The notes under the pieces were generated by a model. That model was not told the origin of the DNA. It saw only the letters and a program-made list of their open reading frames with translations, and did not search any database. Below are positions 6,058-23,982 of a stretch of 64,000 bases of DNA, piece after piece. How positions within the stretch are numbered: the first letter of the stretch is position 1; each line of letters begins with the position of its first letter. Source of the stretch: Alphaproteobacteria bacterium (GTDB lineage Bacteria; Pseudomonadota; Alphaproteobacteria; CAAHEQ01; UBA3637); assembly GCA_045638265.1 (NCBI GenBank), contig JAZUBA010000044.1, positions 62,082 through 126,081 on the forward strand, read 5' to 3'. The position numbers and the translations under genes are program-made.

Positions 6058-6174
6058 TTTGAATAAAATCCTATCAAAATATCAAAAAAACAAGCTTTTT
6101 CAAAAAAAAGCTTGCATTTTTCTGTAAATGGCGTAAAATTAAATATATAAGTATATATTTTTTAAGGGGGTATA

Positions 6175-7107
6175 ATGTTTTTCATAAAAAAAGCTTTACC
6201 AAAAATTTTGTTAGGAATGATATTTGTGTGCGGGATGAGTTTTTATCCTAATGCTTATGCACAAGTCCCGATTTCGGGGTTTACACAGATAGTTACAGAT
6301 GTGACAAAAGTGATTAAAACAACCAATTCAGTTGCAATTAAACCTGTAGTTGATCAAAAAGTATATCTTGAAACGAAAGTACAAGGTACTGTTCAAGAAT
6401 GGAAAGGTGCGGTGAACGAGCAAATTACAGATATGTACGATTCGGCATCTTCATGGGCAGAAAATCAGTATGGCGAAGTCGCTTCTTGGGCAGAGGAAAA
6501 GGGGAATGCTGTCGCTTCATGGGCAAGTGATCAAGGAAGTGCGATTTCTTCATGGGCAAGTGACACGTTTGGTGGTGGAGCTCCTGGTAGTGGTTTCTCT
6601 ATGAAAGATTTAAAATGTAATTTGGAAGTCGTAAAAAAAGGTGTTGCTAAAGTCGGAAAAACAGTTGCTCCTGTTGCTACATTAATGCAAAATCCTCTTG
6701 CAGGTGCCATTGAAATTAAAAAGAAAATGTATATGGGAGAAGTAAATTCAGAAGATAAATTAAGTACTTATGATACAACTACCGTAATGCAAAATGTAAA
6801 ACAATATGTTCAGGATGCAACGAAAACAACGTTGGTTGATGCAACACAGGTTATTAATGGCAGTATTTCTTATTCGGATGGAAAAAAGAGTGTATCTAGT
6901 TGTACAGCAGAGGGTGCCAATAAGGCCTCTAATGTAAAAGAGGATATTAAATTGGTTAATGATATGGGTATTTCAACGAATGTGATGACGAATGTGTTGT
7001 TGTCAATGGATATTACCGAATTATCTGTTAATAGTACATTGGTTTATGAAGATATTAACGGTATTAAAAATATGTTTTCTAAAACATTTCAGGGAGGGAT
7101 GCAATAA
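6175..7107 (+). CDS. Secreted helical protein, VirB5-like candidate 1
   Basis: Sec signal ending AYA|QVP, helical C-terminal region, first gene of the cluster leading into virB8. Confidence 0.45.
   Translation: MFFIKKALPKILLGMIFVCGMSFYPNAYAQVPISGFTQIVTDVTKVIKTTNSVAIKPVVDQKVYLETKVQGTVQEWKGAVNEQITDMYDSASSWAENQYGEVASWAEEKGNAVASWASDQGSAISSWASDTFGGGAPGSGFSMKDLKCNLEVVKKGVAKVGKTVAPVATLMQNPLAGAIEIKKKMYMGEVNSEDKLSTYDTTTVMQNVKQYVQDATKTTLVDATQVINGSISYSDGKKSVSSCTAEGANKASNVKEDIKLVNDMGISTNVMTNVLLSMDITELSVNSTLVYEDINGIKNMFSKTFQGGMQ
6445..6570 (+). repeat. Four ~33-bp (11-aa) SWA-centred repeats inside ORF 6175
   Basis: SSWAENQYGEV / ASWAEEKGNAV / ASWASDQGSAI / SSWASDTFG. Confidence 0.75.
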
Positions 7108-8012
7108 TGATTAAAAAAATAGTTTTAACAAATGTATTTCTTTCTTTGATGCTTTTTTCATCTGTGGTCTGGGGTGGTAATCCTACACATGATGTGCGTT
7201 CTTATAAAGATGAAATAAAGGGCGCTCAACAAGCTACGGAAGAGTTAAAAAAAGAAATGGATAATATGACAACTGCTGTTAAAAGCTTGACGGATGTTGG
7301 GTCGTTGGTTGATGGTCTGTTGAATTTTGATTTTTTAATGCCAAGTAAAAAAACAGATAAAAAATCAAAAGTAACAACGGATGTGACAAAACCGTTTACA
7401 CAAAAAACATCAGCTGGTTCAGGTGATGTTGCTGGACAGGCAAAGGCTGTAGCTAGTTCGATAACTGGGAGTTCTGGAAGTGACGATGAAAACCCTTTTC
7501 CTGATAGAGCAGAAATGAATAAGCAAGTGGATGCAATGCAGGTTAAAGGTGAGTCTTCATCTGATTCAGAAAGTAGTGGTTCGGTTGTGGATACGGCAAA
7601 AAGCGTCGTATCATCGGCAAGCGGTCAAAGTGAAGAAAACAGTTCTACTGGACAAGAGATTGCAGGTAAACGAAAAAAAATGCCTCAAACCAAACAAGCT
7701 TGGGCAAGATATTCGCTTGCAACAGCATTGGTGAATCGTTCGTTGGCATATAGGACTGTTGCTGATACTAAAAAACAGACAACAGAAAAAGTAAATAATG
7801 CAACAAATCTGCGTAAAGCACATACAGCAAAGGTTCATGGCTATTCAGCAATGGCAGCCAGTTATAACAGATTGTTATTGTCACAAGCCGTTGCCAATGG
7901 ATTAGCTTCCTTGAAAGCAATGGATCATGTTGAAGGTAAAATCAGTATCAGCAATCCTTTAATGGAAGGTATGGGCGGAAAGATGAATGATCTTAAAAAT
8001 TTTGTTCAATAG
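7107..8012 (+). CDS. Secreted helical protein, VirB5-like candidate 2
   Basis: Signal peptide then GNPTHD (cf. the VirB5/TrbJ mature N-terminus GIPVxD). C-terminal helices include VNNATNLRKA. Confidence 0.55.
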   Translation: MIKKIVLTNVFLSLMLFSSVVWGGNPTHDVRSYKDEIKGAQQATEELKKEMDNMTTAVKSLTDVGSLVDGLLNFDFLMPSKKTDKKSKVTTDVTKPFTQKTSAGSGDVAGQAKAVASSITGSSGSDDENPFPDRAEMNKQVDAMQVKGESSSDSESSGSVVDTAKSVVSSASGQSEENSSTGQEIAGKRKKMPQTKQAWARYSLATALVNRSLAYRTVADTKKQTTEKVNNATNLRKAHTAKVHGYSAMAASYNRLLLSQAVANGLASLKAMDHVEGKISISNPLMEGMGGKMNDLKNFVQ

Positions 8013-8021
8013 GAGTGAAAA

Positions 8022-8801
8022 ATGAAGATAAAAAAGATATATGGCGTATTGATAGCTTTTGCACTTTTTATGAATGTAACTCCGGCATATTCAACATATA
8101 TGGTTACCGAATGGTTGAGTTGGGCTGAAAAAAAAGTCCAAACGGTTACTGAAAAATTGGCTGATATTGATATGAATGAAATGTTGCAAAAGAAAAAAGA
8201 TCAGTTAGCAGCACAAGATCCGAACGCAGATAAAAGTAAACCGGCAACAACAGACAATGCGAGTGGTTTAAAGCAGTCAGAAATTCCACCTTATGTTGAT
8301 CCGCGTATTAAGGCAGAACTTGATAAAGAAGACCCTTCTATTCCTACTGTTGAAGGGTTGTTAAAAGAAACTCTTGTGTATAAATCAAAAACCATTAGTG
8401 ATAAAGGTTCTGTTGATGATAGAACAAAAGGAAAAAAAGTTAAAGTCGATAAAGATAACGAACAGGATAATACGTTGGAAAAACAACAGGCACAAGCTCT
8501 TGTATCTTATGATAATGGTCGTGCAATAGCACGTCGTGTTCAGGATTTGAGTGAAGTGGTGAGTAATGATGAATCTGAAATGGAGACGGATAAAAATTCA
8601 CGGACAACAACGGGTTCATTGTATAAGGCTTCTTCGTCTATAACATATAAAACACATATGTTATTAAATGAAATATCAGTCATACGAAACAGTTATTTAG
8701 AAGTAATGGCTATTGATGCTGTACAAGCAGAAGAAGTGCCAGAGCAAAAGAGTATGGTAGATACAATGAAAGATGTTGCAAAAGGTGCATTGGGCGGATA
8801 A
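8022..8801 (+). CDS. Secreted helical protein, VirB5-like candidate 3
   Basis: Signal peptide ending PAYS. Similar size and helical C-terminal architecture to its neighbours. Confidence 0.45.
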   Translation: MKIKKIYGVLIAFALFMNVTPAYSTYMVTEWLSWAEKKVQTVTEKLADIDMNEMLQKKKDQLAAQDPNADKSKPATTDNASGLKQSEIPPYVDPRIKAELDKEDPSIPTVEGLLKETLVYKSKTISDKGSVDDRTKGKKVKVDKDNEQDNTLEKQQAQALVSYDNGRAIARRVQDLSEVVSNDESEMETDKNSRTTTGSLYKASSSITYKTHMLLNEISVIRNSYLEVMAIDAVQAEEVPEQKSMVDTMKDVAKGALGG

Positions 8802-8812
8802 AGGGGGATGCG

Positions 8813-9694
8813 ATGAAATATTTGATAATGTTTTTAATGGTATTTGTTTTTATAACAGAGGGTAATGCAGCGTGTCCGGCAATGACATTTGATATGGCAC
8901 GGGAAGCGAAAGAGGCTGTTCGTAAGATTAAAGAATATGCTATTGAGTATTATGAAGATTTAATCAGTAAAAGCGAAGATGATATTAAAGAAGCAAAACA
9001 AGGTAATGCTGATTGTAAAAACAGTCCGGAAAATACAAAAGATCAAGTAATTAAAACAGAAACATTTAAGTATTTGTATGACAAGGTCTTAGATGCACCG
9101 GAAGATGATGCTGATTATTATTTGGCACGAACAAAAAATTATGAAGAAGCAAGAATTGCTGTTAAAGAAAAGTTTTTTTACGAAACGGATACACAATTAA
9201 CAGAGCGTGGAGAATCATTAAAAGAAGTTACCGGATTTGATGCAACCGCAACCGGTGGATTGAAAACAACAGCTGAGTTGTTTGAGATATTGAGAACACG
9301 TGAAAAATATGCAAATGCCGTTGCAGCAAAAAATTTGGCAATATCTATGGATTTAAGAGAAAAAATTGGTACTGATTTGAAGTCTACTGAAAAAGTGGCA
9401 ACGAGTGGATGTAACCAATTGCAAGGTATGTTGTTGGAAAATAGAAATTTAGCAGCATTATTAAAAGAAACGGCTTCGGATTTGGTTGTTCAGATATTGA
9501 CATTGGAATCGTTAGCAGCAAGAAATTTACAAAAAGAATCGCCACAGTTGTTGACTGTTCCTAATAAAGCTAAAAAGAATGAAAAGTCTATGTTGGGAAA
9601 AACTGTGGATAGCGTTAAAGAAACAGCCGGAGATGTTTCCGGTATTGTAAACAATTTGTCATCTGTTGGTGCTTCGGCAATGTCCGGATTTTAA
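8813..9694 (+). CDS. Secreted helical protein, VirB5-like candidate 4
   Basis: Signal peptide then ACPAMTFD, long amphipathic helices. Confidence 0.45.
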   Translation: MKYLIMFLMVFVFITEGNAACPAMTFDMAREAKEAVRKIKEYAIEYYEDLISKSEDDIKEAKQGNADCKNSPENTKDQVIKTETFKYLYDKVLDAPEDDADYYLARTKNYEEARIAVKEKFFYETDTQLTERGESLKEVTGFDATATGGLKTTAELFEILRTREKYANAVAAKNLAISMDLREKIGTDLKSTEKVATSGCNQLQGMLLENRNLAALLKETASDLVVQILTLESLAARNLQKESPQLLTVPNKAKKNEKSMLGKTVDSVKETAGDVSGIVNNLSSVGASAMSGF

Positions 9695-9706
9695 AAGGAG
9701 TGTAAT

Positions 9707-10546
9707 ATGAAGTATAATAAAAAATCTTTTTTAGTTTATTCACTCGCATGTTTTGTTATTGTTGCATCAGTTTCATCTGCACATGCTATTTGTTTAGTAA
9801 ACCCCACTATGTGTCCGGTTGAAATGTGTGGTTATCAAACACAGGAAAGTCCTTCGGCACAAATGATGCAAAAAGTAACAACAGGATATAAAACAGCCAA
9901 AAAAGAAATAAAGAGCATTCGTAAGTCTGTGTCGGGTATTATGAAATCTGTAACGGCACTGCCGGGGATTGTCATGGGATTGGCGGCACAAGTTGCCAGT
10001 TTGCCGTTTGAAGCAGTTAGTTCAACGTTGGGTTTAACAGAAGATAAACAAAAAAAAGCGGAAGATGATCCAAACAATGTAACACAATACAACACTCATG
10101 GCATGCAAACCGTTCAAACAAGAATAGACGAAAACTTAAAAACCTATAATACAGAAGCTAACTCTGATTATGACAGTCAATATTTTAATTTGGCACGTCG
10201 GCAATTTATTCGTCAGCAGGCAACGATTACTTTGATGGCACGTGTTGCTGTGTTGAAGAGTTATTTTAAAGATATACATGACGCCATGGAACAAGCAGAT
10301 AAAGAAATTGAAAAAATTTCTGCTCAATCTTCAGGCGAGGCAAGTAATTCCTATAATGAATCATCGGTTGGGAAGATGAATTTGGCATTAAAGCAGGCTT
10401 GGTTTAATTTGTTGACTATCCAGAAACAAGTAGAAGCTGTTAAATTGGAATTTGCTTCAAATCAGGCAATAGCCGGTATGAAAATGACAAAAAAAGTACC
10501 CACGGTAAGTGGTAATAAAGATTCATCTAATCAATCAAAAAAATAA
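9707..10546 (+). CDS. Secreted helical protein, VirB5-like candidate 5
   Basis: Signal peptide ending AHA, Cys-containing mature N-terminus, helical C-terminal bundle. Confidence 0.45.
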   Translation: MKYNKKSFLVYSLACFVIVASVSSAHAICLVNPTMCPVEMCGYQTQESPSAQMMQKVTTGYKTAKKEIKSIRKSVSGIMKSVTALPGIVMGLAAQVASLPFEAVSSTLGLTEDKQKKAEDDPNNVTQYNTHGMQTVQTRIDENLKTYNTEANSDYDSQYFNLARRQFIRQQATITLMARVAVLKSYFKDIHDAMEQADKEIEKISAQSSGEASNSYNESSVGKMNLALKQAWFNLLTIQKQVEAVKLEFASNQAIAGMKMTKKVPTVSGNKDSSNQSKK

Positions 10547-10556
10547 GGGGGATAAT

Positions 10557-12221
10557 ATGAAATATTCAATTTTGTTATTGGCAGGAATTTCATTTGTTGG
10601 GTTAAGTGCTATTTATTCAACACCTGCAACAGCACAATTTGTACAAGCAGAACCGTATGTTGATCCGGATCCGATTCAACCGGCAATCGGTAATTATCAA
10701 GAACCACTGATGCGTGCTATGAAAATACACGACATACAGTATAATATTAATGATTTGCAAAAACTCCTTATTCCGTTAGCTGAAAATGAAAAAGCAAACA
10801 AGGAATTGGCGGAAGCTCAATTAAGTGCTATGGCGGATTGTAATATTCAAAATTTATCCCTGTATTTTAACAATCCGGAAGAGGTATGGTCAAAATTGCT
10901 GGATACATATCAATCTAAAATTAAAGAATTAACTATTCATATTAATAGTGCTGGTTTAGAAGCTGATATTGAATCAGGTAATGCTGAAAATGCAACGGTA
11001 GCAGCTCAATCCATCACGAGTGAAGAAGAAATGGCTGAATCTTATCCCTATTGGCGTGTCGGATATCAGATTTTGATGGATTTATACAATAATCCCGAAA
11101 ATTATGGTTCAACAGATGGAAAAGCAAAATTGCCTTTATGGATAGACCAAAAATACCAATATACAAAAGATGTTGTTGCTTTGTTGACACAAATCAAAAC
11201 ACATTTTTGGATTCATAATACATTAAATGATGTTGCAAATGCAGATTTAGTTCGATTAATTAATCGTTTTTCACAAACAGACGGTATTTTGGATACTTTG
11301 GATTATCAGAAAAATTTAAGTCAATATAATGAGTTGATATCTTATTTGAAAAAGCGTAGAAATTATAGTGAGACAGCTAAAAAAATAGCCAATATTGATA
11401 AGTTTCCACAATTACCGAAACCATTACCGCCTGTATATGAGATTATACAGCCTATGATGGAAAAAAAAGAACAAGAACGGTTGGTGATGTTCCCTCAATG
11501 GCCATCTCCTTGGGCAAGATATATTCGTGAAGGATTAAAGGATAGAGCAAAAAATGGTGAAATGGATACATTCTTTTTGCCAAAAACAATTAATTTACGC
11601 CCTGAAGTTTTGGGTTGGGATTCAACGAAAATTAACAACAGATTGTCAGTTTACCATGAAAAACAAAATGATGTTGACAGTTATACAAAAAGTTATGAAA
11701 CAGCAAAACAAAATGTTGAAAATACTGTTGCAAGCGTTAACGAGAGTTTGAAAGAATTAGGAATTGAGGAAATATTGGATTTGTCTGCTGATGTAACGGC
11801 TTTGCAAAACAAACTGGTTGAATTAAAATTGGCAGAAGTTCAAAAAGCTCGTTCCTTGTTTGAACAAAATGCAGCAACAATTAAAAAAGAAAATTCTGTA
11901 TCTGTTGAAGCGACAACAAAGGACAGTTTAAATGCTTTAGCTAATTTAGATCCTTCGTCAGAAGAATATCAACTATTAGCTACACAAATGAATGCAGCAC
12001 AAGGTTCTCATGATGAAGGGTTAATGGATGATTTGGAAAAAGATAAAAATGGATATGCCATTCAATCTCCGATTGCAACAAATGATCCTGTTCAAAATAT
12101 AGAAGCACAAGAAGCAGAATATGTGTTGCATGCAAAAACTATTGATGCTTCTGAAAAAGAGCGTGAACAGATTAGACAACGAGCAATTGATTTATTGTGT
12201 ATTAATGGTGGTGTAAAATAA
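10557..12221 (+). CDS. Secreted coiled-coil protein of unknown function in the T4SS cluster
   Basis: ATG at 10557 follows a GGGGG RBS (track start 10509 is an upstream extension). Signal peptide ending ATA|Q. One base from the first virB8. Confidence 0.6.
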   Translation: MKYSILLLAGISFVGLSAIYSTPATAQFVQAEPYVDPDPIQPAIGNYQEPLMRAMKIHDIQYNINDLQKLLIPLAENEKANKELAEAQLSAMADCNIQNLSLYFNNPEEVWSKLLDTYQSKIKELTIHINSAGLEADIESGNAENATVAAQSITSEEEMAESYPYWRVGYQILMDLYNNPENYGSTDGKAKLPLWIDQKYQYTKDVVALLTQIKTHFWIHNTLNDVANADLVRLINRFSQTDGILDTLDYQKNLSQYNELISYLKKRRNYSETAKKIANIDKFPQLPKPLPPVYEIIQPMMEKKEQERLVMFPQWPSPWARYIREGLKDRAKNGEMDTFFLPKTINLRPEVLGWDSTKINNRLSVYHEKQNDVDSYTKSYETAKQNVENTVASVNESLKELGIEEILDLSADVTALQNKLVELKLAEVQKARSLFEQNAATIKKENSVSVEATTKDSLNALANLDPSSEEYQLLATQMNAAQGSHDEGLMDDLEKDKNGYAIQSPIATNDPVQNIEAQEAEYVLHAKTIDASEKEREQIRQRAIDLLCINGGVK

Positions 12222-12222
12222 A

Positions 12223-12867
12223 ATGAGGCTGTTTGGCTTTAAAGAAAGTGATATTGTTGTTGGTTCAGGTAAAAGTTTTGCCCAGTTGTGGATGATTATT
12301 GCTTCTGTGTTTTTGGGTATTAATCTTTTCCTGATACTGACATTATTGCAAATAACGCCCAGATTGAAAGTTGTGGCGCAGGTTTTAACAGTAACACCTA
12401 TGAATTCAGGTCAGTTTTTACAAGTTGAACCTTTTGATCAGGAAACAAGTGATAAGAAATTAATTGATGAGATGTTAATTCGTTTTTATATGGATTCACG
12501 TCATAATTCTTTTGGGGATAAACTTGAAATGACATATCGTTGGGGTAAAGGAGGACCTGTTCATCGCTTATCTTCTTCAAAAGTATATAATGAGTTTGCT
12601 GGAAATTTTAAAGAAAAAATAAATGCAGCTTCCAAGCAAAAGTCAACAACGAGTATTCGTATTATGAATATTACAATTCGTCAAAATAATATATATGATA
12701 TTGAATTTGAAAAATATAAATTAACGAAGGGTGTTTTGGAATCCAGACGAAAAAATGCTGTTTTGAAAGTGGCATATTCATCACAATATAAATCAATGGG
12801 ACGTTTACCGATTAATCCCTACGGTATGTATGTTGTGTATTATAACGAAACAAATAAATTGAGGTAA
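12223..12867 (+). CDS. virB8: VirB8-family T4SS protein (copy 1)
   Basis: Single TM, then LIRFYMDSR, VHRLSSSKVYNEF and C-terminal INPYGMYV (NPxG motif). Confidence 0.75.
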   Translation: MRLFGFKESDIVVGSGKSFAQLWMIIASVFLGINLFLILTLLQITPRLKVVAQVLTVTPMNSGQFLQVEPFDQETSDKKLIDEMLIRFYMDSRHNSFGDKLEMTYRWGKGGPVHRLSSSKVYNEFAGNFKEKINAASKQKSTTSIRIMNITIRQNNIYDIEFEKYKLTKGVLESRRKNAVLKVAYSSQYKSMGRLPINPYGMYVVYYNETNKLR

Positions 12868-13151: not shown

Positions 13152-13856
13152 ATGGAACAATTTGAGCAATCAAATAATTCATCTTATGATGTTGTATATG
13201 ATGCTGATAATTCAGAAGAAGCAGCAACCGAGCGGCGCTATCTTTGGATTGCCCGTACGTTTGCTCTTATTTCGGTTGTTTCATTTTTGGGAACACTTAT
13301 TTTATTAATTGCTTTGTTTTCTTTAATGCCGGTTATGCGTGTTCAACCTTTTTATTTGACAACGCTGAACAAAGATCAACAAATTGTTCAAATTCAGAAA
13401 CCTAAAATTGAAGATATTGATATGCAATTATTAACCGAATCATTAATCAGACAATATGTCTTGGCTCGTTTTACGGTTAGTTCTAATATTTCTGAAATGG
13501 TGCGCCGTTGGGGCTTGGATGGCATTGTGAACCAAATGAGTGATCAAACGGTTTTTGCGGAGTTTAGTAGTGCGGCAGAAGATGTGTTAGCTCAAGTAAG
13601 ACAACAAGGCTTAACCCGTTCAGTTCGGATTTTGAATGTTCGTAATCTTGGCTCTGATGCTGGTACAAATAAAAGTGTTTGGGTTGCAGAAATTGAAGTA
13701 ACCAGTATGAAGCAAGGCGATGCGGAACCTGTAAAAAGTACATGGGTAGTGCGTATGCGTGTGTATTATGAGGGACGCACAGGTGCTGTTTGGGAAAAAC
13801 GATTACAAAATCCGCTTGGTTTTAAAGTTGATCGCTTTGGTATACAGGCAAAATAA
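13152..13856 (+). CDS. virB8: VirB8-family T4SS protein (copy 2)
   Basis: TM, LMPVMRVQPF, LIRQYVLAR, C-terminal RLQNPLGFKV. Confidence 0.85.
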   Translation: MEQFEQSNNSSYDVVYDADNSEEAATERRYLWIARTFALISVVSFLGTLILLIALFSLMPVMRVQPFYLTTLNKDQQIVQIQKPKIEDIDMQLLTESLIRQYVLARFTVSSNISEMVRRWGLDGIVNQMSDQTVFAEFSSAAEDVLAQVRQQGLTRSVRILNVRNLGSDAGTNKSVWVAEIEVTSMKQGDAEPVKSTWVVRMRVYYEGRTGAVWEKRLQNPLGFKVDRFGIQAK

Positions 13857-14359: not shown

Positions 14360-16090
14360 ATGTATACACACAATTCATATAAAATTTGTTGGTTGACAAG
14401 TGTAGCTTTGGCTACGTTTATTTCAACAGTATCAATGGCACAATCCATTTTGCCGGCAAACATGCAAACAGAACAACTCAATGATGCAGTTGCTCAAACG
14501 AATGGCGAGTTTGAATCTGTTAATTTAGATTATTTAAATTCACTGGGTATGCAACAAAAGGCATGGAATGATCCTTTATCACATATGGGCGAAGGTCAGT
14601 CAAAACCGGGATATTCAAAATATACATGGACTCCGGATGTTGTGTTACCGATTCGTTTGCGTGAAGGCATGATGACGTTAATTAATTTGCCGACTTGGGA
14701 ATTGGTTGAAAAAGTGCATATTGGTTCTCCTGAATCGTTTGGTGGTGAAATTGCTGCACCAAACTCTCTCCTCGTTTATGCTGATCCTTCTTATTTAGGG
14801 GTAGACAGTAATATGATTATTTTTGGCCGTTCAGGTAACAGATATGTATTCTATTTGCGCTCTGAAACATATAATACGGAAAAAATCACTCAGTCTGTTG
14901 TGGATGTTTTGGTTGGTCCAAAATATACGCCGGTTGAAAATGGAGGAAAACTAGGAAATTTTAATGGTGCCACGACAACGGCAGCTGGTACAGGTTCTTT
15001 GGGTGCAGGTGCTCCGAATTGGTCGGGAAGTCGTGGCAACGGACAAAATCCGCAACTTGGATTAAATACGGCATCAACCGGCCCAAAAGATTGGTTGAAA
15101 AATATTCCGGTAGATCCAGAAAGTTTTCATTTTGATATAGATATGTATTTGCCAAATCCGTCAGATGTTGATATTGCACCGGATAATGTATGGAGAGATA
15201 ATATTTTTACATACATTGATTTAGGACCAAAAGCCTTAACAATGACGCAACGTCCAATTGTCAATTTAGTTGTTCAGGATGCTGAAGTCCCTGTTGGTTT
15301 TAGAACCAGTGGCCCGAATAGTCGTTTGATTGTTGTTGAGGGTATTGGTGATATGGTTTTGCGTAACGGTAAAAAGTTAATTTGCTTGAAGTTGCGTAGA
15401 GATCCATCTTCCGGTTTGGAATATACTGATTATAGTGGTTCTCAAAGCAATTCTTTGGTAAAACCGTCAACTATCAGTAAAGAACCGGTAGATATTGTTC
15501 CGGAAACAAAATCTGAAATGCCAAAAGCTCAAAATGCGGAAATGGCAGAAAGTTCTGAAAAAGTAGCACAAAATAATGCAAAACAAATTGAGCAATATTT
15601 TAATCAGGCAAATAATGTGCCAGTTTCTGGAATGCCAATTGCTCAATCCGGCATGATTCAATCTCCTGTGGTATATCAAGGTGCTTCCGTTATGTATGAA
15701 CAAAACATGTCACCACTACCAGCTATTCCGGCAACAGTTATGAATTCTCCAACGGCATCTGCTAATATTGTTAATGTTATGAATGATGTTGTTTCTGCAC
15801 GTCCGGGTGTGTCATCGCCAGTAAGTGATAAAGAAACAATTTCTATTGAATTAGGGACAAATGCGGACATTTCAGAATTAGAATCGATTTGGGAAACGAT
15901 ATACACACAAAATAAAGATACATTAGAGGGATATGAACCATATTATTCTGTTGATACAACGGCAGATGGTAATATGAGAGAATTATTCCGCTTGCGTGTT
16001 GGTCCTGTTAAGGATGTAAAAACAGCAGATAAATTATGTAAAAAATTGGGACGGAAAGGATTCTCTTGTTCTGTTGTGCGGATGCAATAA
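14360..16090 (+). CDS. virB9: VirB9/TrbG-family protein with low-complexity linker and C-terminal SPOR domain
   Basis: Signal peptide, SNMIIFGRSGNRYVFYL, IAPDNVWRDNIFTYID and LRNGKKLIC match VirB9. C-terminal FRLRVGPVKDVKTADKLCKKL..G.SC is SPOR-like. Confidence 0.8.
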   Translation: MYTHNSYKICWLTSVALATFISTVSMAQSILPANMQTEQLNDAVAQTNGEFESVNLDYLNSLGMQQKAWNDPLSHMGEGQSKPGYSKYTWTPDVVLPIRLREGMMTLINLPTWELVEKVHIGSPESFGGEIAAPNSLLVYADPSYLGVDSNMIIFGRSGNRYVFYLRSETYNTEKITQSVVDVLVGPKYTPVENGGKLGNFNGATTTAAGTGSLGAGAPNWSGSRGNGQNPQLGLNTASTGPKDWLKNIPVDPESFHFDIDMYLPNPSDVDIAPDNVWRDNIFTYIDLGPKALTMTQRPIVNLVVQDAEVPVGFRTSGPNSRLIVVEGIGDMVLRNGKKLICLKLRRDPSSGLEYTDYSGSQSNSLVKPSTISKEPVDIVPETKSEMPKAQNAEMAESSEKVAQNNAKQIEQYFNQANNVPVSGMPIAQSGMIQSPVVYQGASVMYEQNMSPLPAIPATVMNSPTASANIVNVMNDVVSARPGVSSPVSDKETISIELGTNADISELESIWETIYTQNKDTLEGYEPYYSVDTTADGNMRELFRLRVGPVKDVKTADKLCKKLGRKGFSCSVVRMQ

Positions 16091-16143: not shown

Positions 16144-19100
16144 ATGACAAGAAACAGAGGAACCAGCTCATCAGAGCAATATGCAAAAAAAAGTAATCGG
16201 CTTTTGTTGTTTGTAGGAATATTGGCTATCATTGTTTTTTTTGTATTAATTTTGTTGATGTCTGGAGGCAACAACAAAAAAGCTGAAACTGTGGAAACAG
16301 AAATTTGGGGAGGTGCATCAGATATTGATGATGTTGCTCCAAAACCAAAAGATGTCGATGTTTTTTATCGTGGTGAAGCTAAATTAAAAGCTGATCCGGA
16401 ACAAATCAGTATGGATAGAGTTGTTATTGGTTCTAAAGTGGATGCAATACTTACTTTAACTGCTGAAAATAAACCAATTCAATTTTTGAAAGTTGATTTC
16501 GTACAACAGCAGGCGGATGGTTTTACATTTGATACGACTTGTTCTGCAGATACGATTATTCAACCGGGTGAAAACTGTATTGTTAAAATTATGTGGAATC
16601 CGGTCAAGTTGCAACAATTGCAAAATAACTTGATTGTTACATGGAAAGAATCGTCAACAACTGCTTTCAATGATTTTACAACAAATGTCTTGGTTAAGGG
16701 ACAATCAATTGATTCAGAGTGTTGTGTTACCTGTGAAGATTCGGCAACAAAAAAAGAAGCAGAACCTCGCATGGCTATGGGATTGGATGGTAATCTTTAT
16801 GAAGTAGATAAAGATGGATACATTACGCTTCCTGATGGTACTCGAGTCAAAGTGACTGATAATGGCTTATTCATTGATGAAAACGGTAATATTGTCGGTA
16901 TTATTCAACCGGAATATATCGCTCTTAACATGAAAAACGAAGTTATCGGTAATATTACCCCATCAAACGAAGTGACAAATGCAAATGGCGAAAGCATCGG
17001 AAAATTGTTGGGTGATAAAACAATTGTTGATTCCAAATTAACGGTTTTGGGTGCTGGTGTTCCTGTTTTGCCTGTTATGAATAAACAAGGTGAAGTTGTT
17101 GGAAAAATGACGAAAGATGGAACAGTTGTTGATGCACAAGGAAAAGTAATAGGTAAAGTTTGGGTTGATGGACAGGCAGTTGCATTGGACGGAACTCAAA
17201 TCGGTTACATTCGTCCTTGGGGATTAGTCGCAGACTTTAATGGTAAAATCATTGGTGGTATTATTTCTGATGGTCGAGTCTTTAATGCTAAAAATGAAAC
17301 GGTAGCTCAAATTACACCAGGTGGATTTGCTATTAATACGCAAGGGGAATTAGTTGGTGCTACAATTCCGCAAGGGGTTGCTGTTGGTGCAGGGTGCCAA
17401 TCCTTAGGCAAAGTTTTGTTAAATGGCGACGTTCGAGATTCATTTGATCAAATTATTGGAACGGCATTGATTGACGGAACAATTGTTAATACAAAAAACG
17501 AGGAAATCGGTTCAGTTATTTCGCAAGGCCTTGTTATTAATGAAAGCGGTTCAGTTGTTGGTTTTGTAAACTCTGAAGGAAAAGCTGTCAGTGGACAAGG
17601 TAAAGTTATTGGTTGTGTTAACCCGAACGGAACAATTTCAGCTGGAAAAAGATTGGTCGGTTCTGTTTTGGCAAAAGGACACGTTATAGGCTATTCCTGT
17701 AATTCAATCGGTTCTGTTTTCCCATCTGGCGAAGTATACAATAGTGCTTTAAATGTCGTTGGTAAAGTAATGCCGGATGGTTTTGTCAAAGATGCTGAAA
17801 ACAAAATTATTGGTTTGGTTGTAACACGTGCGGCGGCAGTTGCTAATGGTTGTCGTTTGTTGGGATTGGTTTCAATTACCGGTGAGATTATTGATTTAAG
17901 CAAAAAAGTTGTCGGATGTTTGACACCTGAAAAAACAGTTGTTGATTCTAGCGGTAAAATTGTTGGATCTATTGCTCCACGAGGTGTTGTCTATAAAGAT
18001 GACGGTTCAATTTTGGGTCGTGTTCGCTTAGATGGTAAGGTAATGGATTTGCAAGGGAAGGTCATCGGTTGCTATAATGCAGATGGGACTATTACAACAT
18101 TATCCGGTGAAATATTGGCTCATGGTAAACAAGGTGATGGTGTTATTCTTGATGCTGACGGTAATCCGACGGGCTGGACACGAATCGGTAACGAAATCTT
18201 TGATGCTAACGGAAATAAAATCGGTGAAGTTAACAGTAATAATGTGATTGTAGATGCAAATGGCCGTTATATAGGATTTATACCTGAAAATGGTGTTATT
18301 TTCTCACCGGAAGGTTTGATTATTGGACGTTATTCATCAAAAATCGGTTACGCAGTTAATCAAAACAATGAACGTTTTGGTCGTATATTACCAAATAATA
18401 CGGTTGTGAGTGCTGATACAGGTGAAGTTGTTGGCGGATTAATTCCTGATAATGCCGGATTTATTGATAAAGGTAGTAAATTACTCGGCTATATGAAGGT
18501 TGATGGTACACTAACTGATAATGAAGGTAATATTATTGGTGCTATCAGGGGTGATGGAACAGTTATTGATAAAGATGGTAATGTTATTGGTTATCGTATT
18601 TTAGAAGGCCGTGTTGTATCAATGACCGGTAAAGATGTCGGTACTGTTATGAAAGACGGGACTGTTGTTTCCGGAGAACATACAACAATTGGTCATGTTG
18701 ATGGATTAGGTCTTGCTGTATCTGAAAATGGTAAAATTTTAGGTGCTGTTATGCCAAAACTCGGGTTAGGGTATGATGGTGTTGGCTTATTAGGTTATAT
18801 GGCTCCTGATGGTACTATGACAGACAATAGTGGTAGTGTTATAGGAAAGGCCTTGCCATTTGGATTGATTGTTTCGGCAGATGGCACAGCTATTGGTAAA
18901 TTAAGAGATATGGCTGTTTATGTAAACCAAGACAACAAAACAATTGGTTGGATTTCATTTGAAGGTACATTAAAAGGAAAAGATAACCGTGTTGTTGGGA
19001 ATATTAAGCCGGCCGGTTTAGCTACGGATAAAAATAACAATTTAATTGGCTATGCTATTAACAAGGGCATTGTTGTTGATGGTTCAGGGAAGATGATTTC

Positions 19101-22100
19101 TACTGTTTCAGTAAATAATAAGATCTTGCAAAAAGAAAAATACTTAGGTGTTGCTTCCTCTACAAAATATGTCTATTCAATGGATGACAAAAAACTTGGT
19201 CAAGTATTGCAACCGGGTATTGCTGTTAATAACGATGGCGGATTATTAGGCTGGACGTTGCCTGATGGTACTATCGGCACAAATAAAGGGAGTATCGGTC
19301 GTGTTTTGTTTGACAACAAAGTCGTCAATACAAAGGGCGCTGTTATCGGATCATATATTCCTTTCGGAACAACTGCTTTTGATGATAAAGGTCAAACAAT
19401 CGGATTGGTTAATCAAAACGGTGAAATTGTAACAACTGATGAAATGGTTAAAGGTAAAATCAGAGGAACAGATACAGTTGTTCGCGGGAATAATATTGTT
19501 GGTCAGCTCTTGTCTGATTTGCCGTATATCAGCAATAATTTGCTTGGTAAAACATCGGGTGCCGCACAATTAAATGGTGAAGTTGTTAATGTAACGAATG
19601 GTAAGTCTATCGGTTCGTTGATGACAAATAATTTTGTAACCTCATTTGCCGGTCAGCTTGTTGCTACAAAAACGCCGTTAGGGGTTGCTGTAAATAACTC
19701 TTTGGCTACTTTAGGTGAGTTAAATGTTGATGGAAGTATTAACGGAAATAAAGGTCAAGATGCTCGTGTCAGCGGTTCTGGTGCAATTTATGATGCCGGT
19801 GGAAAGATTTCCGGTTCTGTTTTGCCAATATCAACCTTTATTAATAAAACAGGTGGATTATTAGGTAAAAACGGTACAAATAATCAGATTGTTGATCGAA
19901 CAGGTAAACAAATTGCCGTTCAAATGCCGTTTGGTACAGCTTTAACCGTTAATAACATTTGGGCAGGCGGTACATTACCAAGTGGTATGGCGGTTAATGA
20001 TGATGCTGTTCAATTGGGTGCGACGACTGCAGATGGTGTTGTTTTAGATGAAAATGATATGATTGTCGGTCGTGTATTGAGTGATGGTGCTGTTATCAAT
20101 GTATCTGACAGAGAATTGTTTAATACAATGCCGTACCTTGGTGGTATGGTTTCTCAAGGTATTCCGTTTAGTTATCGTAATAAAGTATTAGGTGCCACAA
20201 CGGTTAATGGTGATGTTATTGATAGCACAGGCGTTAAACTTTTCCGAATACTTGATGATGCTACAATTTTAGGTAAGGATGAACCATTAGTCGGTTCAAT
20301 TTTGCCGATTTTAACAGCTGTTTCCCATTCAGGTGAGTTTTTAGGTACATTGGGTGCTGATGGTCGAGTCATTTTACCAACTGGTGAAGCCAAAGGTAAA
20401 ATAGCTGTTAATGAAACGGTTAAAGGTGAAGAATTTGAAATTTTAGGGGCATTGGTTCCAAGGAGAACAATCACAAACGATTGTCAAATTATTGGTGTTT
20501 CAGCAATGAATGGTTATGTTGTTAATGCACGTGGAGCAGTTGTGGGTCGGGTTAAACCAGATAAATGGGCTGTTTCTCCATCCGGTGAAAAAATTGGTCG
20601 TGTGACACGTAATGGTTTGGTTATTTCTGAAACCGGCGAATATTTAGGTCGTACATTAACAGACTCAACGGTTGTTGACTTGTCAGGTGTCAATTTAGGT
20701 TGTGCTAAAAATGATGGTACAGTTGTTGATAACAATGGCAATGTTATTGGTAAAGTTGTTGAACGTGGTCTTGTTTTAGGTAAAGATGGTAAACCTTTGG
20801 GTCGTATTAAGGCAGACGGTTCTGTCGTGAATGCCAAGGGAGAAGTTGTTGGTAAAGTTTTGGCTAACGGTGATGTTGTTGATGAATACGGTAATGTTAT
20901 TGGACACAATATTGGACGTGACCAAGAAATTTTATACGATGAAAACGGCAATATTAAGGGTACGTTTGGTACAGATGGTACGTTCTATGATTCAAAAACA
21001 GGAAAAGCCGTATTCCGTGTTGATGAAAATGGAAATGTATATGATGCAAACGGTAATTTAATCGGAAAATACAAAGGCGGACAATTCACAACATTAAATG
21101 GTGATCCGATGGATGAAGTAACATTGTTGGTTGACAAAAACGGTAATGCCTTTGGTATTGTTTCTGATTGTGAGGTATTAAGTCCGACCGGAGGCGAAGT
21201 TATTGCTAAAATTCAACCGGATGGCAATGTAGTTGACATGAACGGTGAAGTAAAATATCGTATTTTAGGTACAGGTGTTATTTTGGATACTGCCGGAAAT
21301 GAAATTGGCAAAGTTTCAGGTACATCTGTTAAGTTAGATAAATGTGGTATTAAGAGTATGGATGCTGTGAGCGATGATATTATCGGTCGTTTAAAAGATG
21401 GTATTCTTTATGATAAAGACGGTAATGTAATCGGTGAATTAAAAGACGGTATTCTTTATGATAAAGATGGCAATATTATTGGTTATGTCAAAGATGGCAT
21501 TATTTATGACAAAGATGGTAATATTATTGGTTATATTGATGAAAACGGTAATGTTCACTTGTATGGTAAATCCGGAGATGGTGTTGGTACGGGTGAAGGC
21601 GTAGCTGGACGTGCTATTTTTATCGGAAATAAAAAGTATAATATAACATCTGATGGTAAATCTATTGTAACTGATGATGGTACAATTATTGGTTACATGG
21701 GAGAAGATGGTAAGCCATACACATTGGACAATCGTCAATTAACCGCCAGTGGTGATGCAGCCGGTCGTTCTCGCCCGAATTTTGCGCAACGCCAAGTTGC
21801 AACACCTGAACAAATTCAAAAAATGAAGGATTTGCTGACGAAAAAACGTGAAAGTATGAAAACAAATATACTTGAACGTGGTAAAATTACAGCGGGTGCT
21901 CATGTAAAAGCAATGAGCAGACAGAAAAAAGATGCAAATTGGAAGGGAGTTCCTCGCTCGGTTTCTTCATGGCCGGTTGATATGTCTCGTATGATTTTAC
22001 AGGATAAAGCGATTCCGGCAGTGTTGGTACGTTCTGTTGATTCACGATTCTCTGATGTTCCTGTAACAGCTATTGTTGAACGGCATGTTTATGCTGAAAA

Positions 22101-22968
22101 GGGACGTAACATTTTAATTCCGGCCGGTAGTCGTGTTATCGGTAAGATGTCATCAGGCAGTTATAATGGCAGAGTTGCTAAAATGGAAATTACATGGGAA
22201 CGTTTGATTCGTCCAGATGGTGGTGCCTTTAAATTTACGGCAACATCCGGTGATGCTCAAGGTAGAGGTGGTGTTGCTGCCTATTTGGATGACCAGTTAA
22301 TCAACAAATATGGTAAGCCGGTTATGACATCTGTTGTTACATCTGCGGTATCTTATATGATGGCAGCAAATGATGACTATACGCAAAATGTAAATGACGG
22401 TACGACAACCCAATCTTCAAAATCACAAGCAGTTGCTGATGCACGAGAAAGCTTTATTAGTGCCATGGATAGAATTTTCAATAATTTGATTGAAGATGCA
22501 ACAAGTATCCCAAATGTTGTGTTTGTTCCTTCCGGTACACGTATTACAATTTTCTCACAAGAAGATTTATGGTTGCGTTCAGAAGAAGATGACATTGAAG
22601 AATACGCTAATTCCAGTGATTATCAAGATATGTCTCAAGCTCAAAAGCCGAATACAAGTTCTTGGGTTGATAAACGAACTGGTGGTGATTCTGAAACTGA
22701 GGAAGATGAAGATACAGAAGATGAAGAAGATTCTGAAAAATCTGATGAAGATAAGAAATCAGAGTTACCAAATTATTATCAGCCGAATGATTCATATAAA
22801 TCGTCGTCGGTCAATGGTAATGATGTTGTTTTAAATTCTGTTACCTCTTCGACAAATGAACCAGTTTATGATGGCACCGCGAATCGGGTTGTTGAGGATA
22901 TTCCACTCAAAGAACGTGCAGTCGTACCTGTTTTACCGAAAAGCGGTACTTCTAGCCGATTATTTTAA
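16144..22968 (+). CDS. virB10: Giant VirB10/TrbI-family protein (TM, Ig-like domain, ~1600 aa of beta-hairpin repeats, TrbI domain, acidic tail)
   Basis: C-terminal IPAVLVRSVDS, ILIPAGSRVIG, WERLIRPDG, DAQGRGG. Lies between virB9 and virB11. Confidence 0.85.
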   Translation: MTRNRGTSSSEQYAKKSNRLLLFVGILAIIVFFVLILLMSGGNNKKAETVETEIWGGASDIDDVAPKPKDVDVFYRGEAKLKADPEQISMDRVVIGSKVDAILTLTAENKPIQFLKVDFVQQQADGFTFDTTCSADTIIQPGENCIVKIMWNPVKLQQLQNNLIVTWKESSTTAFNDFTTNVLVKGQSIDSECCVTCEDSATKKEAEPRMAMGLDGNLYEVDKDGYITLPDGTRVKVTDNGLFIDENGNIVGIIQPEYIALNMKNEVIGNITPSNEVTNANGESIGKLLGDKTIVDSKLTVLGAGVPVLPVMNKQGEVVGKMTKDGTVVDAQGKVIGKVWVDGQAVALDGTQIGYIRPWGLVADFNGKIIGGIISDGRVFNAKNETVAQITPGGFAINTQGELVGATIPQGVAVGAGCQSLGKVLLNGDVRDSFDQIIGTALIDGTIVNTKNEEIGSVISQGLVINESGSVVGFVNSEGKAVSGQGKVIGCVNPNGTISAGKRLVGSVLAKGHVIGYSCNSIGSVFPSGEVYNSALNVVGKVMPDGFVKDAENKIIGLVVTRAAAVANGCRLLGLVSITGEIIDLSKKVVGCLTPEKTVVDSSGKIVGSIAPRGVVYKDDGSILGRVRLDGKVMDLQGKVIGCYNADGTITTLSGEILAHGKQGDGVILDADGNPTGWTRIGNEIFDANGNKIGEVNSNNVIVDANGRYIGFIPENGVIFSPEGLIIGRYSSKIGYAVNQNNERFGRILPNNTVVSADTGEVVGGLIPDNAGFIDKGSKLLGYMKVDGTLTDNEGNIIGAIRGDGTVIDKDGNVIGYRILEGRVVSMTGKDVGTVMKDGTVVSGEHTTIGHVDGLGLAVSENGKILGAVMPKLGLGYDGVGLLGYMAPDGTMTDNSGSVIGKALPFGLIVSADGTAIGKLRDMAVYVNQDNKTIGWISFEGTLKGKDNRVVGNIKPAGLATDKNNNLIGYAINKGIVVDGSGKMISTVSVNNKILQKEKYLGVASSTKYVYSMDDKKLGQVLQPGIAVNNDGGLLGWTLPDGTIGTNKGSIGRVLFDNKVVNTKGAVIGSYIPFGTTAFDDKGQTIGLVNQNGEIVTTDEMVKGKIRGTDTVVRGNNIVGQLLSDLPYISNNLLGKTSGAAQLNGEVVNVTNGKSIGSLMTNNFVTSFAGQLVATKTPLGVAVNNSLATLGELNVDGSINGNKGQDARVSGSGAIYDAGGKISGSVLPISTFINKTGGLLGKNGTNNQIVDRTGKQIAVQMPFGTALTVNNIWAGGTLPSGMAVNDDAVQLGATTADGVVLDENDMIVGRVLSDGAVINVSDRELFNTMPYLGGMVSQGIPFSYRNKVLGATTVNGDVIDSTGVKLFRILDDATILGKDEPLVGSILPILTAVSHSGEFLGTLGADGRVILPTGEAKGKIAVNETVKGEEFEILGALVPRRTITNDCQIIGVSAMNGYVVNARGAVVGRVKPDKWAVSPSGEKIGRVTRNGLVISETGEYLGRTLTDSTVVDLSGVNLGCAKNDGTVVDNNGNVIGKVVERGLVLGKDGKPLGRIKADGSVVNAKGEVVGKVLANGDVVDEYGNVIGHNIGRDQEILYDENGNIKGTFGTDGTFYDSKTGKAVFRVDENGNVYDANGNLIGKYKGGQFTTLNGDPMDEVTLLVDKNGNAFGIVSDCEVLSPTGGEVIAKIQPDGNVVDMNGEVKYRILGTGVILDTAGNEIGKVSGTSVKLDKCGIKSMDAVSDDIIGRLKDGILYDKDGNVIGELKDGILYDKDGNIIGYVKDGIIYDKDGNIIGYIDENGNVHLYGKSGDGVGTGEGVAGRAIFIGNKKYNITSDGKSIVTDDGTIIGYMGEDGKPYTLDNRQLTASGDAAGRSRPNFAQRQVATPEQIQKMKDLLTKKRESMKTNILERGKITAGAHVKAMSRQKKDANWKGVPRSVSSWPVDMSRMILQDKAIPAVLVRSVDSRFSDVPVTAIVERHVYAEKGRNILIPAGSRVIGKMSSGSYNGRVAKMEITWERLIRPDGGAFKFTATSGDAQGRGGVAAYLDDQLINKYGKPVMTSVVTSAVSYMMAANDDYTQNVNDGTTTQSSKSQAVADARESFISAMDRIFNNLIEDATSIPNVVFVPSGTRITIFSQEDLWLRSEEDDIEEYANSSDYQDMSQAQKPNTSSWVDKRTGGDSETEEDEDTEDEEDSEKSDEDKKSELPNYYQPNDSYKSSSVNGNDVVLNSVTSSTNEPVYDGTANRVVEDIPLKERAVVPVLPKSGTSSRLF
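21391..21534 (+). repeat. Three tandem 48-bp (16-aa) repeats in virB10
   Basis: LKDGILYDKDGNVIGE / LKDGILYDKDGNIIGY / VKDGIIYDKDGNIIGY, with high DNA identity. Confidence 0.85.
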
Positions 22969-22992: not shown

Positions 22993-23982
22993 ATGGGTGA
23001 GTTATCAATCAGTGATACATATAAAGTGCTAGAATCGGCACTACGTCCCCTTTCATATTGGTATAATCAGGATAATGTAGAAGAAGTTGCCGTTGATTCA
23101 CCGGGCGGTATTTGGTTGCGGTTACGTGGCAAACATGCTCATCCTTGGCACTATTATGAAGATGGTAAATTAACAAGAGAGTTTTTAAATAACATCTTAT
23201 ATATCATTGCGAATACATACGATTATGCTTTTGATCCGGAACAAGGAACTCCTGTTGTGTATGCAACATTACCAGGAGGTCATCGTTTTACGGGTATTTC
23301 AGGCAGAAATGTTATGTATGATAACAACGACTTAACAGGCGGTATTGCATTGGCGATTCGTGTTTATCGTGAAGATGTTTCAATTAAAATGAGTGATTTC
23401 GGATTAAGTGAAGGGGCACGATTGCGACCGTTAAATCGTTTAAAGCAAGTTGAAGATCCTGACGATCCGTTTGAGCGTTTGCTCTTATCTATTAAACGTG
23501 GTGATCATGTTTTAGTTAGTGGTGCAACTGCAACCGGTAAAACAACATTCTTGAACAATTTAATCAAGATTTTGGACCCTCATAAACGTATTTTAACGAT
23601 TGAGGATACACGAGAATTAATTGTACCTCACAAAAACAGAGTTCATATTGTTTTACCTCGTACGGAATTAACTAATAAATTTGATTATAAGAGAGTTATT
23701 GACTTGGCTGTTCGTTTCACACCGGATGCGATTATTGGTGGTGAAATTTCAACGTCTAATGCCGGTGCATTATGGGAATTGATGGGATCAGGACATGATA
23801 ACTGTTTTGCTACCATTCACGCTGAAAGTCCCGAAGCAGCCTATAAAGCCTTTATTGGTAGAATTTTGCACTCATATCCGACAACGGATAGAGAAAAAAC
23901 ATATCGTGAAATGAAAGAAAAGTTACGTGTTGTGCAAATTAATCGTGATGGTAATATTCGTGCTGTTACTGAAGTTACATAA
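22993..23982 (+). CDS. virB11: VirB11 traffic ATPase
   Basis: Walker A GATATGKTT, Asp box IEDTREL, PDAIIGGEI, His box GHDNCFATIHA. Confidence 0.9.
   Translation: MGELSISDTYKVLESALRPLSYWYNQDNVEEVAVDSPGGIWLRLRGKHAHPWHYYEDGKLTREFLNNILYIIANTYDYAFDPEQGTPVVYATLPGGHRFTGISGRNVMYDNNDLTGGIALAIRVYREDVSIKMSDFGLSEGARLRPLNRLKQVEDPDDPFERLLLSIKRGDHVLVSGATATGKTTFLNNLIKILDPHKRILTIEDTRELIVPHKNRVHIVLPRTELTNKFDYKRVIDLAVRFTPDAIIGGEISTSNAGALWELMGSGHDNCFATIHAESPEAAYKAFIGRILHSYPTTDREKTYREMKEKLRVVQINRDGNIRAVTEVT

Follow-up and report, generated by a model that had tools for sequence, protein, structure and literature searches.

A conserved row of secreted, putatively VirB5-related proteins ahead of virB8 in a type IV secretion locus of uncultured gut Alphaproteobacteria

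What is a row of mutually divergent secreted proteins doing ahead of the virB8 genes of an alphaproteobacterial type IV secretion system (T4SS)? This question is raised by a 64,000-nucleotide stretch from an Alphaproteobacteria bacterium (assembly GCA_045638265.1, contig JAZUBA010000044.1, positions 62,082 to 126,081), hereafter the window. An initial annotation had pointed out five of its genes, here called A to E, as tandem VirB5-like genes, and had offered their products either as the five subunits of an asymmetric stalk or pilus tip or as interchangeable adhesins. Of the core parts of the T4SS, VirB5 is understood least; its role is to nucleate the pilus on VirB6 and to make contact with the target cell. 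In the reading that we favour, and which we regard as probable while leaving real room for doubt, the row opens the operon for the outer half of the T4SS, A to D belong to the VirB5 superfamily as members that diverged long ago, and E and a sixth gene, F, encode conserved secreted partners.

The row, its conservation and the secretion genes around it

The row comprises the following genes, with lengths in amino acids (aa).

Gene A, 6175-7107, + strand: 310 aa, secreted; ATG open reading frame (ORF) with a Shine-Dalgarno site
Gene B, 7107-8012, + strand: 301 aa, secreted; ATG ORF with a Shine-Dalgarno site
Gene C, 8022-8801, + strand: 259 aa, secreted; putative distant paralogue of D
Gene D, 8813-9694, + strand: 293 aa, secreted; putative VirB5-like domain
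Gene E, 9707-10546, + strand: 279 aa, secreted; widely conserved
Gene F, about 10557-12221, + strand: ~555 aa, secreted; likely start ATG 10557 behind a GGGGG site

Genes A to E lie exactly where the initial annotation had placed them, as tightly spaced genes of 259-310 aa on the plus strand: neighbours overlap by 1 nucleotide or are separated by gaps of 9-12 nucleotides, each ATG is preceded by a ribosome site of the GGAG/GGGGG type, and the start of every product is a hydrophobic segment resembling a signal peptide, which is kept in the orthologues. The architecture described at the outset, a variable middle followed by long C-terminal helices, is also seen in the alignments of A to E and in the structure models of B and D. 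To these five we add F, a sixth secreted protein that belongs to the row; all six row proteins carry signal peptides, and their genes are co-directional with the downstream virB8-virB8-virB9-virB10-virB11.

Of 14 loci collected within the genus, 12 cover the whole array. All 12 show the same order, A-B-C-D-E-F-virB8a-virB8b, with one orthologue per gene, and because each of A to E has such a one-to-one orthologue in the same order these are real genes. Orthologues of A occur in 14 of the 20 other genomes of the genus, and were found neither in 4 further genera of the same family nor in the 16 other families sampled. Identity to the window protein across the same-genus loci is 23-42% for A, 30-39% for B (four positional orthologues being missed by BLAST), 21-45% for C, 28-50% for D and 27-49% for E, well below the 66-78% of VirB9 and the 59-73% of FolD; the row is thus diverging far more quickly than the genes beside it, which would be consistent with surface exposure.

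A wider clade was sampled through 80 loci anchored on VirB9, which are labelled in their records as bins of uncultured gut 'Alphaproteobacteria'. A match to F stands in the row ahead of virB8 in 59 of these 80, and where the contig continues there follow VirB9, a VirB10-sized ORF (2085-2538 aa in most loci) and an ORF of 329 aa; the domain content given below for VirB10 is that of the window copy. Across related loci the families of C, D and E number 46, 54 and 57 proteins, and C, D, E, F and virB8 remain linked even in loci where folD is not a neighbour, while in other lineages the A and B positions are taken by other protein clusters. An assignment of the row to the surA/lptD envelope cluster was rejected, since loci without folD/surA as neighbours still have C, D, E and F beside virB8.

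The number of genes in the row is not constant. Counting the genes between folD and F in the 33 loci that hold both anchors gave five genes in 19, four in 7, six in 6 and three in 1, with the three-gene locus and one of the six-gene loci looking like broken or split genes. The idea that five is conserved in relatives thus holds for 19 of the 33 loci only. Judged from their sequences, the A to E copies are ancient, one-to-one orthologous paralogues, with no recent duplicates among them.

The row runs into the following secretion genes, which include the putative outer half of the apparatus.

virB8 copy a, 12223..12867, + strand: Pfam VirB8, 51.5 bits
virB8 copy b, 13152..13856, + strand: Pfam VirB8, 53.6 bits
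virB9 (CagX-type) with a C-terminal SPOR domain, 14360..16090, + strand: Pfam CagX 46.4 bits, SPOR 27.9 bits
Giant virB10, 16144..22968, + strand: 2274 aa, beta-flower repeats then TrbI; Pfam Bflower_2 301.7 bits, TrbI 114.4 bits
virB11-type ATPase, 22993..23982, + strand: NCBIfam TIGR02788, 130.5 bits, below its equivalog cut-off

In VirB10 (16144-22968), 16 Bflower_2, 4 Bflower and 7 DUF3659 stretches stand ahead of the TrbI domain, and the SPOR domain in VirB9 (14360-16090) is a peptidoglycan-binding domain. Elsewhere in the 1.98-Mb genome, VirB4 is encoded on contig C55, the VirB2 pilin on C63 and two VirD4-type coupling proteins of 731 and 748 aa on C68 and C23, while C51 carries three tandem polytopic paralogues with 6-10 hydrophobic segments and mutual similarity at E 1e-8 to 1e-19, whose TrbL/VirB6 matches are only sub-threshold and which we call VirB6-like. 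As the VirB4, VirB6-like, VirB2 and VirD4 genes lie on other contigs, the system is a chromosomal P-type T4SS with scattered parts. The queries used found one virB9 and one virB4 in the genome, and a relaxase search limited to PF03432 found none.

Remote similarity to VirB5

Simple family membership was not found. None of A to F matched a family in Pfam or NCBIfam, the VirB5 family PF07996 had no match in the whole genome, and pairwise BLASTP and phmmer comparisons among A to F gave nothing significant (best BLASTP E 0.15). Among 118 proteins scanned from relatives, the first-position proteins of three other lineages reached PF07996 scores of 23.8, 22.7 and 17.6 bits, all under the gathering cut-off of 24.7 bits. 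A word-indexed homologue search with the D profile returned 19 close, unnamed relatives with no Pfam annotation, and in the ESM Atlas both D and E fell beside unnamed neighbour clusters with low recognition; one cluster (score 0.91, D only) has PF07996 in 14% of its members and another has DUF4141 in 16%, which we treat as leads only.

For more sensitive comparisons, we used a VirB5 profile drawn from 28 diverse VirB5 proteins of 26 other Pseudomonadota genomes. A set of 162 close VirB5 proteins from a homologue search with a real VirB5 (L110), with identities of 61% or more among the matches listed, was too narrow and was left unused for the profile. Retained signal peptides inflate the hhalign values. 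With signal peptides kept, B, C, D and E reached 95%, 86%, 72% and 50% to VirB5, values discarded as inflated, and the pairs B-C, C-E and D-E reached 75-81%, which were also discarded and which drop to about 1% after cutting. The values retained here were obtained with signal peptides removed and with reversed-sequence or reversed-alignment controls, and these controls, in which composition and helix periodicity are kept, gave at most 2%.

Of the row proteins, B is the best direct candidate for a VirB5. Among 2562 ORFs of the genome, the VirB5 hidden Markov model (HMM) matches only B (E 3.1e-8, 30.9 bits, signal peptide included); the mature-only HMM matches B at E 6.2e-4, its orthologue in locus L037 at 2.4e-5 and the first-position protein of another lineage at 2e-5. 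In mature-only hhalign, B aligns with VirB5 at 84% with the genus profile and at 73% with the expanded profile. A gives only 0.1-0.4% against VirB5 itself, but 79-89% against B over ~104 columns of the C-terminal hairpin and 75% (strict D profile) or 93% (deep D profile) against D, and it is probably a remote relative of B and D within the VirB5 superfamily. C and D are linked at 91-94% without signal peptides, and a standard tool places the pair at 96.9% (E 1.6e-10), the 116 aligned columns lying towards the C-terminus and outside the signal peptide.

The link from D to VirB5 runs through its relatives. When the D profile was run as a full HMM scan against 1.8 billion representatives, it yielded 136 proteins. 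We scanned 60 of these matches against Pfam, choosing 11 long proteins and the 49 that scored weakest while still being of sufficient length. One D-family protein, P0274, passes PF07996 with 27.5 bits over the same stretch as its D match, and another, P0251, scores 23.0 bits. In L082, a D relative of 810 aa, the D HMM covers residues 504-789 (E 1.7e-14) and the mature VirB5 HMM residues 503-637 (E 5e-8 with a 9-sequence set or 1.6e-6 with a 286-sequence set), both matches beginning at 'GIPVVE'. Several proteins act as bridges: among 135 proteins of the D scan, P0251, P0260, P0259 and P0250 each draw matches from several of the HMMs for A, B, C and VirB5, with P0251 matched by those of VirB5 (8.6e-8), A (9e-7) and B (1e-5), and P0260 by those of VirB5 (1.8e-6) and C (2e-5), while the E and F HMMs found no match among the same 135. 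With the intermediates included in a deep D profile, D aligns with VirB5 at 85% over 162 columns starting from residue 1 of both. E reaches 1-41% to D and 2% to VirB5, and F at most 1% against A to E and VirB5.

These comparisons give us moderate confidence that A, B, C and D are remote homologues of VirB5 at superfamily level. The description of the five as VirB5-like is thus upheld by profile methods and bridging proteins for A, B, C and D but not for E, and for none of them does it extend to membership of a Pfam family.

Motifs and predicted structures were then compared. The 28 real VirB5 proteins have a mature N-terminus of the G-I/V-P-V-x-D type. That of B is GNPTHD, with QVPAMDP in orthologues; that of D is ACPAMTFD in the window and GTPVID or GIPVVE in relatives; A has QVPISG/AITFDP, the motif is weak in C, and E differs in being Cys-rich. 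E also carries a conserved RRxYIRQQAT motif, F has an invariant C-terminal Cys and Gly, and A combines W-rich repeats and a conserved PGSGFS motif with a conserved C-terminal helical hairpin. In some lineages (L075, L076, L082; for example L082:1582-4014), D is the C-terminal domain, of ~300 aa, of a protein of 790-823 aa. The N-terminal 500 aa of these long forms are Gly/Ser/Leu-rich. Their GIPV motif lies inside the protein, a hint of fusion or proteolytic processing.

TraC and TrwJ, both VirB5 proteins, share a fold of three long helices and a small globular appendage. The model of D (predicted local distance difference test, pLDDT, 79.7; predicted template modelling score 0.63) has a signal peptide, then a helix at 28-63, a small mixed or globular insert (76-140) and two further long helices (145-194 and 202-241), an order of elements that would match that of VirB5 as in the TraC fold. 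In the AlphaFold2 model of B, a disordered middle is flanked by helices spanning 30-72, 180-230 and 235-276. A Foldseek search of the D model against the PDB gave no match at E <= 1e-3, TrwJ and CagL being the best natural matches among the Foldseek candidates; in a wide VIA-align search TraC was not among the best 50 rows, which excludes nothing. A complex prediction for B, C, E and D, with D as partner and run without controls, scored 0.24, below the mark of 0.32, a value that weighs neither way. As a separate observation, the A-family orthologue at L057:2602-3375 scores 24.2 bits, against a cut-off of 25.4, for FliD_C, which represents the C-terminal region of the cap protein of flagella and may hint at a cap-like nature of A.

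How the row may be read

A number of results weigh against a VirB5 ancestry for A to D. PF07996 matches no window protein at E <= 1 and none of the family members scanned (0/42 for D, 0/42 for E, 0/38 for C), and sequence profile searches of the PDB with A, B, D, E and F returned only chance-level rows. Cutting the signal peptides lowered the hhalign value to VirB5 from 72% to 5% for D and from 86% to 13% for C. The match of B to VirB5 spans only the first ~41 mature columns, and the B model (pLDDT 48) is unreliable and unusable for a fold search. A strict D profile, limited to E <= 1e-20, brings D to just 6% against VirB5, so the link needs the intermediates (85% deep versus 6% strict) and could therefore be profile drift. 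E has no link to VirB5, and the row lies upstream of virB8, whereas a canonical virB5 lies between virB4 and virB6.

Alternatively, only B might be a true VirB5, with A, C, D, E and F being lineage-specific helical accessories of the T4SS in the periplasm or at the surface, comparable to the species-specific Cag components. The VirB5 profile similarity of the others would then stem from a helical-bundle make-up rather than from shared descent. We think this unlikely, while giving it serious weight, because such a make-up is kept in the reversed controls, which stay at or below 2%, and E and F, which belong to the same operon, score low as well. Moreover, GIPV opens the D domain of the long D forms and is also where their match to VirB5 begins, P0274 passes the Pfam cut-off, and several bridging proteins are matched simultaneously by the HMMs for A, B, C and VirB5.

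The row might also be cargo rather than apparatus. Its proteins would then be exported by Sec, form a periplasmic complex and leave through the T4SS in a second step, in the style of pertussis toxin, whose genes lie upstream of ptl. According to the relevant portion of PMC12857230, the toxin subunits S1-S5 are Sec-exported and assembled in the periplasm before export by Ptl. Six fast-evolving signal-peptide proteins directly upstream of secretion genes would suit such an arrangement. However, neither Pfam nor NCBIfam shows a toxin or enzyme domain in the row proteins, the model of D shows simply a bundle of helices, A to D are linked to VirB5, and this genome has two VirD4 where Ptl, as described in the same portion of PMC12857230, has none. 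A cargo role consequently seems to us quite improbable.

Very improbable, in our judgement, is the fixed 1:1:1:1:1 heteropentamer that the initial annotation had envisaged, with A to E filling the five VirB5 positions. Its appeal comes from R388, in which a VirB5 pentamer sits on a VirB6 pentamer (PMC12857230, in the portion on that structure), and from the five genes present in every spanning same-genus locus and in 19 of the 33 anchored loci, with each paralogue kept one-to-one. Against it stand the loci with four genes (7/33), six (6/33) or three (1/33), a range of 3-6, as well as the replacement of the A and B positions in other lineages, the lack of a VirB5 link for E, and a genome with three VirB6-like paralogues and not five.

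We return to the reading in which A to D are old relatives of VirB5. What the analysis shows is how the genes are ordered, that they are conserved and that some are remotely homologous; location, stoichiometry and function are inferred. A to E would open the operon of the outer half of the chromosomal T4SS, with two virB8, virB9-SPOR, the giant virB10 and virB11 behind them, and A, B, C and D would each consist of a Sec signal, a long helix at the N-terminus, a variable middle and a helical hairpin at the C-terminus. Once exported by Sec, the VirB5-like proteins may assume the roles that VirB5 has in other systems, as in the model outlined in PMC12857230, either in a periplasmic stalk on VirB6 or at the tip of the VirB2 pilus, where they would contact the target cell. 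One-to-one retention, a fixed order and the absence of recent duplicates suggest distinct, non-redundant jobs or a mixed assembly and not swappable variants, which weakens the proposal of interchangeable adhesins. Distinct roles or a mixed assembly are also favoured by C and D being kept clade-wide while the A and B positions turn over, and the jobs could be divided between stalk and tip or shared in one mixed assembly.

Taken further, the stalk or tip might be built jointly from several diverged VirB5 paralogues, as an asymmetric mixed assembly or with a division of labour between stalk and tip, E and F being clade-specific partners. This extension is tentative and, on balance, we doubt it. 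If true, it would be the first T4SS to fill the VirB5 position with a conserved group of distinct subunits instead of a single protein, and the fast-evolving A- and B-type members would set target specificity in the gut.

Comparison with known systems and neighbouring observations

Like VirB5/TraC/TrwJ/TrbJ (PF07996), the proteins considered here have a Sec signal, fall within 220-310 aa and are encoded in a T4SS operon. They may share the G-I/V-P-V-x-D type of N-terminus, as GNPTHD/QVPAMDP in B and GIPVVE in long D forms, and, going by the D model, would share the long N-terminal helix, variable insert and two long C-terminal helices. Unlike that family, there are four or more divergent copies here rather than one, and the middles are longer and partly disordered.

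In layout, the nearest analogue may be the CagH-CagI-CagL module of the Helicobacter pylori Cag system. Cag has a CagX-type VirB9, a giant CagY and a VirB5-like CagL with its partners CagI and CagH, and CagH, CagI and CagL have a common C-terminal motif. No sequence relation between the row and Cag proteins was found, and the present locus differs in that its host is an alphaproteobacterium and in being chromosomal and syntenic with housekeeping genes. No description of such a system in gut Alphaproteobacteria was found in the literature, within the library searched.

Sequence-variable VirB5 homologues also occur several to a locus in the Bartonella Trw system, which is described as having 2-5 copies of trwJ-I-H (virB5-7) and several trwL, in the relevant portions of PMC2653234 and PMC12857230. 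As presented there, however, the whole trwJ-H unit is amplified in Trw, whereas the row copies stand alone and lack similarity at BLAST level. No membrane or lipoprotein genes (virB6/virB7) lie between the row copies, and the best BLASTP E of 0.15 likewise gives no sign of an amplification of the Trw type.

The rvh system of Rickettsiales, in the part of PMC2653234 devoted to it, offers a further parallel, with a duplicated virB8, scattered islets, several VirB6 paralogues and vertical inheritance, and with no relaxase found. That account describes rvh as lacking virB5 only. The scattering, the two virB8 and the three VirB6-like proteins fit, but several VirB5-like genes are present here against none in rvh, and there are three VirB6-like proteins and not five. 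We do not class the present system as rvh-type, since B and its relatives contradict the 'no virB5' state.

Should the favoured reading hold, widespread, uncultured, small-genome gut Alphaproteobacteria keep three to four old VirB5 paralogues and two more secreted partners, and T4SS with an rvh-like scattering need not be without VirB5. The row, the giant repeat-bearing VirB10 and the SPOR-tagged VirB9 would together form a natural experiment on stalk and tip diversification, and six 'hypothetical' protein families that recur in many gut metagenome bins would gain names.

Upstream of the row lie housekeeping genes: an lptF/G-lptD fusion, surA and folD, together with a gene that by eye alone resembles a tyrosine recombinase. 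One further feature lies between folD and gene A.

Terminator-like inverted repeat, 6091..6114, no strand assigned: consensus match only

This repeat probably ends the folD transcript, in which case gene A would open a new transcription unit; terminator-like sites in the region are no more numerous than the shuffled expectation, and a promoter scan of the region likewise gave promoter-like sites not above the shuffled expectation. The fusion is one ORF of 1083 aa at 730-3981 (+ strand) with an LptF/LptG permease domain (6-355), LptD_N (407-485) and LptD (649-1018); such a joining of an inner-membrane lipopolysaccharide-export permease to an outer-membrane lipopolysaccharide insertase would be unusual.

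At locus L066, the secreted proteins in the upstream position (L066:10-915 and L066:982-2067) contain EGF-like domains (EGF_2 56.5 bits, EGF_TEN 62.9 bits), which are eukaryote-type modules, here adjoining a T4SS. On contigs C51 and C55 of the genome studied, ORFs of 764, 975, 995, 1292 and 3034 aa start with a type IV pilin-like N-terminus (…GRSMVEMLGVLAIIGVLS…), and some small ORFs on the same two contigs likewise begin with a type IV pilin-like N-terminus (GRSMVEMLGVLAIIGVLS).

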